From assembly GCA_026026165.1 (NCBI GenBank), contig JAPEUD010000052.1, forward strand, positions 1 to 64,000: DNA of 64,000 nucleotides, read 5' to 3'. The DNA comes from Sarea resinae (lineage: Eukaryota). Below are positions 13,863 through 43,186 of this stretch, piece by piece. The notes under the pieces were generated by a model. It did no database searches, was not told the DNA's origin, and was given only the letters and a program-made list of their open reading frames with translations. The position numbers and the translations under genes are program-made. Every line of letters begins with the position of its first letter. Position 1 is the stretch's first letter.

Positions 13863-16032
13863 ATGTCCGAATTCATCGGGTCAGTACTTGCCATTGCCTC
13901 TGCTCTGCCCGAAATTCCACTCTACCTTTGGGGTGTCTATCGAGCTCGAGCTTACCGGACTCTTACCACAGGGCACGCATCTCGCTTGTCTCAAAGAGCG
14001 ACATACGGTACGTGGGCTATCGAGCGCCTCTGACGATTAAGCTACGGCTAATGCATCTGAAGTTACGTTGGCACGCTCCACGAAATCAATTCAGAAAAGT
14101 CAACCGTTGCGCTTGAGCAGGTGATCTCTTTCGGGACTGAAGGCCGTCGGAACAGCCCTGAAGATGAGATTGCACCCTCTGATAGCGTCTATGAATATAT
14201 TGTCTTTCGAGGCAGTGATGTCAAGGATTTGAGGATCGAAGAGCCACCAAAAGAGAATGAACCGCCTCAGCTTCTCAATGATCCTGCAATCTTAGGCGTA
14301 AGTTGATTTAAACCCCACCTACCCTGAAATGGCCCTTCTCCGTCAACGAAGAGTTCGTTCGACAATATATGTGATGAAAAATTTCGGATGTTAAATTACA
14401 ATACAATATCCGAGAGCGCAAACCCCATGTGGATATTTCCGTTGCCTTCCTTCTGATATAGCAAGCTTCCGCACATTTTGTCAGACTCCTGTCTTGAGAA
14501 GTAGCATCGCTGACCAAAACGCCTTGCAGAGCGGCTCTCGGCCGCAACATTCCCCACAACCCTCTCCACAGCAGCCGCAACAGCAGGAGCGACCTCGGCC
14601 TCCTCAATTGCCGCAGCAGCCACCTTTTCCTTACTATTACCCGCCACCCCCAAACCAGAGGTTCGGCCCCCAGGGTGGCTTTCCTGGCGCACCTGGTTTT
14701 CCCCCTTTGCCCTACGGCGCCCCTCCCGGATGGTACCCTCCCCCGGGACAGGGTTTCCCGCATCCTCCAGGGCCGTTTCAATCCTCATCTATGCCGCCCA
14801 TGCCTCCAGGACCAACAGGTCCTAAGCAGGCTCACCAACAGCCTCGCCCAATTGGTCCGTCTGTGAGAAAGGATCAAAAACCCGAATCCCTGCCAGAGAA
14901 GTCAGACAAGTCAGACAAGCCAGGTAGCGAGCTCCTGGTGGAGACGTCAAGCACTCTGACAAGTGCGACATCTAAGGGCCCAACGCAGAAAGGACCTCCT
15001 CTACCTGTTGACTCCAAACCTGACGTTGCAACAGCTCTCGCGCCAGCTGCGCCAGCTACAATCACAGGCCATGCTCCAGCTCCTTCGGATCATGCCTCAG
15101 TACCGTCTGCCCCCACTCGGTTAAAAAATGGTCGCATTATTCCCGCAGTCCCTTTAGCCAATACTCAAGCAAAACCCCCGGCGGCAAGTACGTCACTTCA
15201 GGCCAATTCTGGGAATACCGCGCAGCGAATGGCGTCGCAACCTGGCCAAGCTGCGGCAAATGCGGCCCTGGAATACCAGAATGCGACCGAAGCTGCGACC
15301 GCTGCCGTGGCTGCCGCTATGGCCAAATTGCCCCCAGCACCTTCTCAACACCAACAAGGAGAGGGTGCACTTGACAATCTCACAAAGAAGGTCAATGAGA
15401 TGAGGACTAAGGATCTGGGTCGGACAGCGCGACAGCCGGGTGTTGGTGCCCATGGCGGGCACTATAGGGGTGGAGTTCGAGGCAATTTTCGGGGTGGCCC
15501 AGCCCAACAGCATGCAAAGAGAGTTGAAGTCCCCACTACGGATTTTGATTTTGAATCGGCAAACGCCAAATTTAATAAGCAAGATCTTGTAAAAGAAGCT
15601 ATTGCGACTGGATCTCCCGTTGGCACACCAGAAGAGTCGGCTCCTAGCAACATCAATGGTGAGGCCACAAGCAACGGTACCTCCAAGAGTGACCTTGATG
15701 CAGGGTCCACTACGACTCCTTACAACAGATCTAGCTCTTTCTTCGATAACATATCAAGCGAGAGCAAGGATCGTGATGAGGCGAATGGGAGACGGCCAGG
15801 AGGACGAGAATGGCGGGGAGAAGAGCAAAAGAAGAATTTGGAGACATTTGGGCAAGGAAGTGTTGACAGTGGCTATAGAGGAGGTTACAGAGGCAGAGGC
15901 AGGGGAAGAGGCGCGGGCCGAGGTAGGGGGGGTTTCGGAGGGCCTGGTAGTTATCGTGGGCAGAGGGCCGGGCACCGTGGAAATCAGGGGAGCAGTATGG
16001 CCGGGAATCCTGCCGTCAACGCACAATCATAG
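13863..16032 (+). CDS. scd6: Scd6/Lsm14 (RAP55, Sum2) mRNA decapping activator / P-body protein
   Basis: Lsm14 N-domain ([21 protein letters not shown]...[14 protein letters not shown]), DFDF box, FFD and TFG boxes, RGG tail. Introns 13880-13971, 14008-14062 and 14298-14529. Confidence 0.95.
14366..14460 (+). ncRNA. Intronic box C/D snoRNA, snR52-like (predicted guide for 18S rRNA Am420, yeast numbering)
   Basis: C box GTGATGA 14371-14377, D box CTGA 14453-14456, terminal TATA/TATA stem. The guide GTTGCCTTCCTT (14441-14452) pairs with conserved 18S AAGGAAGGCAGC (one G-U). Confidence 0.8.
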
Positions 16033-41604: not shown

Positions 41605-42210
41605 GCTAGATTGTCCGTCTCTGTTCGACTTTGTTCGTCTCCCTTTCAATGGAGAGCACGAGGAGGTGTTTGGTCTGGCATGCTGGAGTGTCAGGTTTCA
41701 ATTCACTTGACTTAGACATCCAGGCGTCGTCGGCACGTGCAAGGTGCGCGAGGCGATTTCCGAGCACTGCCTTGGGATGTAGCGAGTACGCGACTCCATG
41801 GTACGGCAGACACCAGTATCAGGGTATCGGATACTTGATAAGTGCACGTCAACCTCTCCGACTAGCTGCTGTCTTGTCATTATTGTCTCTCTTAGCAGGG
41901 CAGGTAGAGCAAGGTAGCAAGTACTCCATCTCAAGCAGCAGACCACCACCACCATCACCACCACCACCACCGCCATCACTACCACTTACCCCCATCATAA
42001 TCATCATCATCGTCACCTCTTCTGAGCCTTCGCATTTCCCTTCCACACGCTCTCCGCCATCCACTACTATCCGTCCCTGCCGCAAATTCACTGACTCTGC
42101 AGTGACTCGTTGATTCTCGTCTTCGTCCATCGTTCGTGTATCGAGGACCGTCTCTCAACTCATCCTCACCGTTCTTGACATTCGTCAACGTCCAACTCCC
42201 GACCGTTAAG

Positions 42211-43186
42211 ATGAATCCTGAGTGGTATGTTAGCGGTCTGTGTCTTGACAGATGTTTGAGCATGTCTGAGTATCCGATGAGAGGAAGCTTTACTAAATCT
42301 CCTTGTCTTGACAGAGTACCGACCATCCGCAACTTGTCCTCATGCTGCGGCAAAGAATACGAGCCTGAGTACTGTGCCGACAGCGAACAACGAACTGATA
42401 CTGTCTACCGAATAGATACGACTACCTCTTCAAGCTCCTCCTCATCGGAGACTCCGGTGTGGGAAAATCCTGCCTGCTCTTGCGATTTGCCGATGATACC
42501 TACACCGAAAGCTACATTTCGACCATCGGAGTTGATTTTGTAGGTGTCCATCCAATACCAAATCTGTCGCAGGTAGAGACTGATGCTTGATAGAAAATAA
42601 GGACGATTGAACTCGATGGCAAGACCGTGAAGCTGCAGATTGTACGTCGGACCACCGTCCCGAGGGATTTGGACTTCTAGACTTCATCTAATGGTCGCAA
42701 TTTAGTGGGATACCGCCGGCCAAGAGAGGTTCCGAACCATCACCTCATCTTACTACCGAGGCGCTCACGGCATCTGCGTCGTCTACGATGTCACTGACAT
42801 GGACTCGTTCAACAACGTGAAGCAATGGCTGCAGGAGATTGATAGATACGCCACCGAAGGAGTGAACAAGCTATTGGTTGGCAACAAGAGCGATATGTCG
42901 GACAAAAAGGTTGTGGAATACACTGTTGCAAAGGTTCGATCACCGCTCTCGAGATGGCCCATCCCACCTCACAATACTAACAAACGTTTAGGAATTTGCC
43001 GACAGCCTCGGGATTCCCTTCCTTGAGACGTCCGCAAAGAATGCCTCAAACGTCGAGCAAGCATTTTTGACGATGGCTCGGCAGATCAAGGAACGCATGG
43101 GAGCAACGACCGTAAACAACAAGCCTACGATCCAGGTCGGCCAAGGCCAAGGAGTCCAGTCCGGCTCTGCTGGAGGTTGTTGTTAA
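42211..43186 (+). CDS. ypt1: Rab1/Ypt1 GTPase
   Basis: Exons 42211-42221, 42416-42539, 42594-42641, 42706-42933 and 42992-43186 give [22 protein letters not shown]...STIGVDF...WDTAGQE...NKSD...ETSAK...GGCC. Confidence 0.97.

Follow-up and report, generated by a model that had tools for sequence, protein, structure and literature searches.

Introduction

Spliceosomal twin introns (stwintrons) are the clearest evidence for intron-definition pairing of fungal splice sites, and the gain, sliding and loss of introns can be studied on them as models. The types demonstrated so far are [D1,2], [D2,3], [D5,6] and [A2,3] (Ag et al., 2020, PMC7138796), and nearly every stwintron known belongs to the [D1,2] type (Fekete et al., 2025, PMC12403724). 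The original prediction for the locus studied here, intron 1 of a fungal ypt1 gene, had described the known types as mostly [D1,2], [D2,3] or [D5,6], in agreement with this literature (PMC7138796), and had proposed a donor split between nucleotides 3 and 4, i.e., type [D3,4].

The [D2,3] stwintron of bioDA is found in Sordariomycetes and others (Flipphi et al., 2017, PMC5639578). Like the proposed arrangement in ypt1, it consists of an internal U2 intron that interrupts the donor of an external one; the intron position is old, lies in a conserved gene and has been retained in a wide range of taxa. The stability of this stwintron is ascribed to the lethality or auxotrophy that would follow from the loss of an internal signal (PMC5639578), and the same explanation may hold for ypt1. 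In bioDA, the donor is split after nucleotide 2, RT-PCR has verified the intermediate, and several lineages have lost the internal intron (PMC5639578). In ypt1, the putative split lies after nucleotide 3, the intermediate is a predicted one, and no clear loss was seen among the loci listed.

The reticulon-like gene rtnA carries a [D5,6] stwintron which is widely conserved in filamentous ascomycetes of the Pezizomycotina (Kavalecz et al., 2019, PMC6616335). As in ypt1, the donor is split and the intron lies in the first part of a conserved gene, but the split follows nucleotide 5 and comes with exon skipping and higher-order nested splicing, unlike in ypt1 (PMC6616335). One of the ypt1 loci sampled here (L091) has a [D5,6]-like layout as in rtnA instead of [D3,4]. 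In rtnA of Lipomyces, two donors stand side by side at the start of the intron, as they do in ypt1, and the origin proposed for this arrangement is a duplication of the donor combined with new internal 3′ signals, named “stwintronisation” (Ag et al., 2020, PMC7138796). One-step and two-step routes lead to the same mRNA in Lipomyces (PMC7138796), whereas one-step splicing of ypt1 from its good donor would lead to a stop codon.

The [D1,2] stwintrons, to which the sister stwintrons of Hypoxylaceae and Xylariaceae belong, are excised in two consecutive canonical reactions by intron definition, as is assumed in our model for ypt1 (Fekete et al., 2025, PMC12403724). For this type, splicing of the inner donor to the outer acceptor is a known error (PMC12403724). 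It leaves 1 nt, whereas it would leave 3 nt in ypt1. Sister [D1,2] stwintrons are split after G1, are similar copies at species-specific positions and have near-terminal complementary inverted repeats of 10 nt (PMC12403724). In ypt1, by contrast, the split follows nucleotide 3, the position is common to at least 111 loci and no similarity is detectable between the clusters of interiors.

In the recursive splicing of long animal introns, ratchet points are formed by a juxtaposed AG/GT, at which the upstream exon is ligated. The model for ypt1 shares with them the stepwise removal of an intron and a 5′ splice site that is regenerated by the first ligation. Unlike at ratchet points, an A follows the internal CAG in ypt1, and the first reaction would not take place at the true exon end.

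A [D3,4] type in ypt1 was not found in the literature searched, in which no paper contained both ypt1 and stwintron and none contained [D3,4]; an earlier mention elsewhere is possible. One supplement file each of PMC9024468 and PMC12403724 held no ypt1 or Rab entry. A [D3,4] case would fill a missing stwintron type.

Results and Discussion

The ypt1 gene of Sarea resinae

The DNA analyzed, called the window in the following, is a stretch of 64,000 nt from Sarea resinae (GCA_026026165.1, contig JAPEUD010000052.1, positions 1–64,000, forward strand). The gene ypt1 is located at 42211–43186 (+) and has five exons, which after joining form an open frame of 201 amino acids ending with GGCC-stop. 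Besides intron 1, which is described below, the gene is composed of:

42211–42221, + strand: exon 1, ATGAATCCTGA (ATG AAT CCT GA), consisting of the codons for MNP plus the initial GA of the codon for E
42416–42539, + strand: exon 2, beginning with ATACGAC; Pfam Ras family match (E 8.1e-13)
42540–42593, + strand: intron 2, 54 nt, GTAGGT...TAG
42594–42641, + strand: exon 3, from exon joining
42642–42705, + strand: intron 3, 64 nt, GTACGT...TAG
42706–42933, + strand: exon 4; Pfam Ras match (E 1.6e-28)
42934–42991, + strand: intron 4, 58 nt, GTTCGA...TAG
42992–43186, + strand: exon 5, ending with GGCC-stop

When exon 4 was compared with solved structures, Rab-1A (2.8e-40) and yeast Ypt1 (6.6e-37) came out ahead of Rab-10 (2.7e-26). 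Together with the Pfam Ras matches, this ranking identifies the gene as ypt1/Rab1. The Ras fold (PF00071), a GDSGVGKS P-loop and a C-terminal CC prenylation motif within the GGCC end are all present. Ypt1/Rab1 is an essential small GTPase.

Two sequencing runs were used for a check on the RNA level, an RNA library (X1) and a run from a relative whose kind was guessed to be RNA (X2). None of the X1 or X2 contigs covers 42211–42415 of the window, and neither the intermediate junction 42224^42315 nor the mature junction 42221^42416 was seen in them; the splicing order of intron 1 is therefore deduced from its signals in the DNA. A contig of 655 nt from X1 differs at 3 positions over 461 aligned bases and skips 58 bases at intron 4, with the joint at 42931>42990 (“cut +2”). 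Thus, the gene or a near-identical one is represented in the RNA library, and intron 4 is as modelled. The donor of this intron, GTTCGA, is unusual (T at +3, A at +6), yet the intron is skipped in this near-identical contig. A contig from X2, i.e., from the relative, omits exactly the 64 bases of intron 3. It further reads ...ATGAACCCTGA directly before the position corresponding to 42416, which gives a weak RNA hint in favor of the [D3,4] reading presented below.

Anatomy of intron 1 and consequences for the reading frame

Intron 1 spans 42222–42415 (194 nt) and opens with GTG/GTATGT. The following elements were distinguished within it:

42222–42224, + strand: GTG, 5′ part of the putative external donor, directly after exon 1
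42225–42314, + strand: candidate internal U2 intron, 90 nt, with donor GTATGT (42225–42230), branch word TACTAAA (42291–42297) and acceptor CAG (42312–42314)
42315–42317, + strand: AGT, 3′ part of the putative external donor, which together with 42222–42224 rebuilds the consensus donor GTGAGT
42315–42415, + strand: remainder of the putative external intron, with branch element ACTGAT (42394–42399) and acceptor TAG (42413–42415)

The positions and words which the original prediction gave for the nested intron were all found in place. The internal intron has a donor, a branch element and an acceptor of its own; the last base of the branch word TACTAAA is off consensus, being A instead of the Y of the fungal YTRAY, and the word consequently fails the strict YTRAY test used below. 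Removal of the internal intron restores a donor, here GTG + AGT, and the external intron also has its own branch element and acceptor. It measures 104 nt once the remainder is joined to GTG, and its branch A lies 17 nt before the G of the acceptor. Conversely, the intron as a whole opens with GTGGTA, which is off consensus at +4, +5 and +6. With A, G and T missing from positions 4–6 of the donor, this word would not be expected to work as a donor alone. Since the split falls between donor nucleotides 3 and 4, the arrangement is assigned to type [D3,4].

Reading the frames bears out the claim that both off-pathway outcomes are truncated after four codons: removal of the internal intron alone results in MNPE-stop, and so does joining of 42224 to 42416, i.e., of the inner donor to the distal acceptor. 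Joining of GTGGTA to the internal CAG was also considered and gives a product that is out of frame. Classical recursive splicing was ruled out for the window, in which the internal CAG is followed by AGTACC, so that there is no AG/GT and no ratchet point of the form YAG/GTRAGT.

Based on these signals, intron 1 of ypt1 is very probably a donor-split spliceosomal twin intron of type [D3,4] that is removed in two U2 steps. Intron definition would pair GTATGT (42225) with the nearest TACTAAA...CAG (42291–42314), and 90 nt would leave in the first reaction. Ligation would place GTG (42222–42224) beside AGT (42315–42317) and thereby create the donor GTGAGT at the end of exon 1. A second round would then excise the external intron of 104 nt via ACTGAT...TAG (42394–42415), and the final joining of GA to A-TAC would produce MNPE-YDYLF. 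Both the sequence in which the reactions occur and the intermediate between them are inferred from the arrangement of the signals.

Another route to the same protein is conceivable, as this requires just the junction 42221^42416. In this case, 194 nt would be removed in one step from the weak donor GTGGTA (42222) to TAG (42415), and the internal signals would be incidental, or U1 would dock on GTATGT with cleavage occurring 3 nt upstream. There is precedent for a single reaction, since published [D1,2] stwintrons are occasionally removed in this way (PMC12403724) and abutting donors permit either route in Lipomyces starkeyi (PMC7138796). That an RNA lacking just the internal intron was not seen in X1 or X2 would also agree with one reaction. 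However, the one-step events described in the literature start from the inner donor, and in the window this yields MNPE-stop. One-step splicing in either variant is assessed further with the relatives below.

Sampling of orthologous ypt1 loci

For a comparison with relatives, JGI metagenome contigs were scanned with a pattern in which the acceptor AG is followed by a degenerate version of the first bases of exon 2. As only these two elements were used, the scan is blind to the donor side. It yielded at least 111 ypt1 loci, 80 of which have flanks of 800 nt and the others flanks of 300 nt; the loci are partly related to each other. The exon-1 word ATGAAYCCNGA is present upstream in 94 of 111 loci among the matches listed, and the 17 loci lacking it are cut contigs or genes with another N-terminus. 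The 94 loci and the window together provide 95 introns in the listed set, 83 of which are distinct, with lengths of 145–541 nt.

Within this set, the interiors of the 83 listed introns, taken without the first 10 nt, fall into 56 blastn clusters between which no similarity is detectable. The window intron has no resemblance to the listed loci beyond exon 1 and the donor, about 20–35 nt. Exon 2 is represented among the matches listed by 89 distinct sequences with a median pairwise identity of 0.83 and a minimum of 0.69; the nearest listed relative of the window's exon 2 has an identity of 0.88, and 87 of the 89 sequences encode one peptide, the same as that of the window. This degree of nucleotide divergence under one shared peptide indicates a deeply diverged sample. 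Further downstream, the listed loci differ in their gene structure: 9 of the 87 distinct loci have no intron 2, additional introns are present in six loci after about residues 80 and 93–98, and one locus is free of any downstream intron.

The split donor is conserved in relatives

Absence of the split donor from relatives had been named in the original prediction as an outcome that would refute it. The split donor was, however, present in 80 of the 83 distinct introns among the matches listed, where exon 1 is followed by GTN and then at once by a second GT with its own G at +5. In these listed matches, the first three bases of intron 1 are GTA in 50, GTG in 27, GTC in five and GTT in one of 83 introns. 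The inner donors of the relatives have G at +5 in all cases, and the inner acceptors are CAG (63) or TAG (17), again among the matches listed.

A strict test for the complete nested layout demanded that a GT begin at +4, that an internal HAG lie no less than 35 nt into the intron with YTRAY 5–45 nt upstream of it, and that the rebuilt donor (GTN plus the three bases after HAG) have the form GTNWGY. It was passed by 71 of the 83 distinct introns listed; 49 of the 56 clusters of listed introns contain a strict pass, and in 47 of them all members pass. Introns with shuffled interiors (200 times) passed 4.0 times on average (sd 1.9, maximum 9 of 83). When the three bases after HAG were slid by +1 to +5, strict passes among the listed introns fell to 5–12 of 83. 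Using relaxed words, 80 of the 83 distinct introns among the matches listed fit the [D3,4] nested layout, nine of these through donors such as GTACGT, GTAGGT, GTGGGT, GTAAGA or GTTAGA. The rebuilt donors in the listed matches are GTAAGT (30), GTGAGT (20), GTAAGC (7), GTATGT, GTCAGT and GTGAGC (5 each) and a few others.

In a blind test, the first internal YTRAY plus YAG was chosen regardless of the bases downstream. Such a pair was located in 81 of 83 introns among the matches listed. The three bases following it are WGY in 68 of these 81 listed introns (AGT 51, AGC 12, TGT 5), and the middle one is G in 76 of 81. In the background, WGY accounts for 6.2% of trinucleotides and occurs after 19 of 305 other YAGs.

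The sizes of the parts are also regular. Among the matches listed, internal introns have a median of 88.5 nt (range 54–183) with the branch A a median of 15 nt before AG, and external introns a median of 102.5 nt. The whole of intron 1 has a median of 179 nt in the listed loci, and other introns of the same genes, measured as gap sizes from ungapped tblastn, are mostly about 45–110 nt. The greater length of intron 1 fits two nested units.

As a control, the intron-2 donors of the same genes were inspected. All of them begin with GT (78/78) and have G at +5 (78/78), and none reads GTNGT (0/78), among the matches listed. Thus, GTNGTR, the six bases at the very 5′ end of intron 1, has T at +5 and is unlike any ordinary intron-2 donor of these genes. 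The inner donor and the rebuilt donor of intron 1 both look ordinary.

These results bear on two alternatives. First, the layout in the window could be a chance resemblance in one species, namely an ordinary long intron in which GT...AG happens to be followed by AGT. A single intron passes the strict test with a probability of about 5%, as seen with the shuffled interiors, and hence the window alone is only suggestive and the relatives decide. Recurrence of the architecture in 80 of 83 orthologous introns from 56 clusters without detectable similarity to each other, among the matches listed, refutes this explanation, whose remaining probability we regard as negligible, and supports the [D3,4] stwintron reading put forward originally for what are so far predicted signals. 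Second, one-step splicing from GTGGTA leaves unexplained why WGY follows the first internal branch element and YAG in 68 of 81 cases against a background of 6%, and why 71 of 83 introns pass the strict test compared with about 4 of 83 after shuffling; it would also have to use GTNGTR with T at +5, where intron-2 donors have G in 78 of 78 cases (all counts among the matches listed). One-step splicing, with or without docking of U1 on the inner donor, is therefore considered quite unlikely.

The two-step [D3,4] reading thus appears to concern an old and selected donor-split stwintron rather than an oddity of one species, as follows from its conservation in relatives. At the level of predicted splice signals, the anatomy and its consequences for the frame are established, and the divergent fungal ypt1 genes demonstrate strong purifying selection on the split architecture.

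Variation of the split point

Several loci outside the regular set have the same arrangement, GA/GTN/GT...YAG/AGT, when inspected by eye: L026, L048 and L052/L095, which have other N-termini, and L018 and L071, which are cut at the 5′ end. The [D3,4] layout is not matched by three of the 83 distinct introns listed. In L045, the internal acceptor is absent from the expected place, whereas its relative L081 has TATAG/AGT. The other two deviate in the position of the split. L067 reads GT/GTGAGT...CAG/ATGT, a [D2,3]-like split, and L091 reads GTATG/GTATGT...TAG/T, which is [D5,6]-like or a plain one-step donor GTATGG. L067 and L091 suggest that the place at which the donor is split can change in evolution.

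A cluster of introns beginning with GTC (L006, L040, L043, L050 and L051, and also L090) has the rebuilt donor GTCAGT with an unusual C at +3. In the five GTC introns, one-step use of the inner donor would merely add one in-frame serine codon. This cluster may represent a stage in the sliding of an intron by 3 nt.

In L024 and L096, an 11-nt word, TGCTGCTGACA, is common to the internal and the external branch regions. The shared word hints at a possible origin of the internal 3′ signals of these two loci by local duplication of the external ones.

Stability of the arrangement and a possible regulatory role

Since losing any internal signal would abolish an essential protein, the structure can only be kept or be lost precisely. 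The arrangement is most likely a frozen old structure and less likely a regulatory device. Nevertheless, the two-step route could in addition have been recruited as a control point, such that a mis-spliced or stalled share of transcripts with a stop after four codons sets the dose of Ypt1. This would agree with the two off-pathway products of the window, which are both MNPE-stop, and with donor position 3 being A or G in 77 of 83 introns (including L067 and L091), which creates TAA or TGA; the absence of a clear loss of the layout from the sampled loci points the same way (both among the matches listed). However, A or G at +3 is already demanded by the donor consensus GURWGY (PMC7138796), and the stop codon thus needs no extra selection. 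In addition, five GTC introns and one GTT intron among the matches listed give a sense codon instead, and the stability is equally well explained by the lethality of losing an internal signal, as argued for bioDA (PMC5639578). A role in setting the Ypt1 dose is accordingly rated as improbable.

A more far-reaching scenario, which we consider doubtful, is that the ypt1 [D3,4] stwintron arose once, very early in filamentous ascomycetes, and has been held since then in this essential, highly expressed gene as a splicing-dependent gate. If so, only two ordered reactions would yield Ypt1, every off-pathway RNA would end after four codons, and the capacity of the secretory pathway would be coupled to the performance of the spliceosome. 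One could then regard the rare [D2,3]-like, [D5,6]-like and GTC forms as naturally occurring experiments on the sliding of nested introns inside a donor.

Whichever role it has, ypt1 is universal, essential, single-copy and easily aligned, and the layout is found in nearly every relative sampled, which makes it a convenient marker. It could be used for dating the birth of a stwintron, for following shifts of the split point and for tests of ordered splicing in model fungi. Annotation is affected as well, since gene callers that rely on a consensus donor will predict exon 1 of ypt1 wrongly.

A repeat and a complementary segment specific to the window

A direct repeat of 12 nt, TGTCTTGACAGA, is present at 42241–42252 and 42304–42315 (+), the second copy spanning the internal acceptor. 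Both copies of this acceptor word are where the original prediction had placed them (42241 and 42304). In 2000 shuffled versions of the intron, no direct repeat of 12 nt occurred (maximum 11). The longest direct repeats of the relatives have 11 nt or less, and the 12-nt repeat was not seen in them, among the matches listed. The suggestion that the word is a trace of the origin of the stwintron was not borne out: the repeat is specific to the window whereas the architecture is common to the relatives, and as this architecture is far older than the species, the 12-mer cannot record how it originated.

The segment 42268–42290 of the internal intron, just 5′ of the branch word, is complementary to exon 2 at 42432–42454 over 23 nt, with 19 Watson-Crick pairs and one G-U pair; the exon arm consists of the KLLLIGDS codons. 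The local alignment score of this complementarity is 29, compared with 18.7 ± 2.2 and a maximum of 27 in 300 shuffles, and the helix is part of both the minimum-energy fold and the centroid fold predicted. A comparable complementarity was not found in 78 relatives among the matches listed. As a conserved helix controlling splicing, it was rejected: the window has a z of 6.1, the next best value is 2.5, and z exceeds 3 in 1 of 79 sequences among the matches listed. The fold of 42205–42470 contains the helix, yet it is no stabler than shuffled sequences (z −0.59). Either the 23-nt arm is a recent copy of exon sequence in inverted orientation, or the helix is specific to the lineage. The repeat and the complementarity are young additions outside the conserved device and hold no record of its origin.

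Other features of the window

Upstream of ypt1, at a distance of about 230 nt from the start codon, about 15 copies of ACC form an (ACC)n microsatellite (41942–41985), which is followed by CAT-rich repeats. No tRNA genes were found in the 64,000-nt window. A C/D-box snoRNA, Z13/snR52, is located at 14362–14464 (+) and matches Rfam RF00335 over its full length with 86.6 bits.
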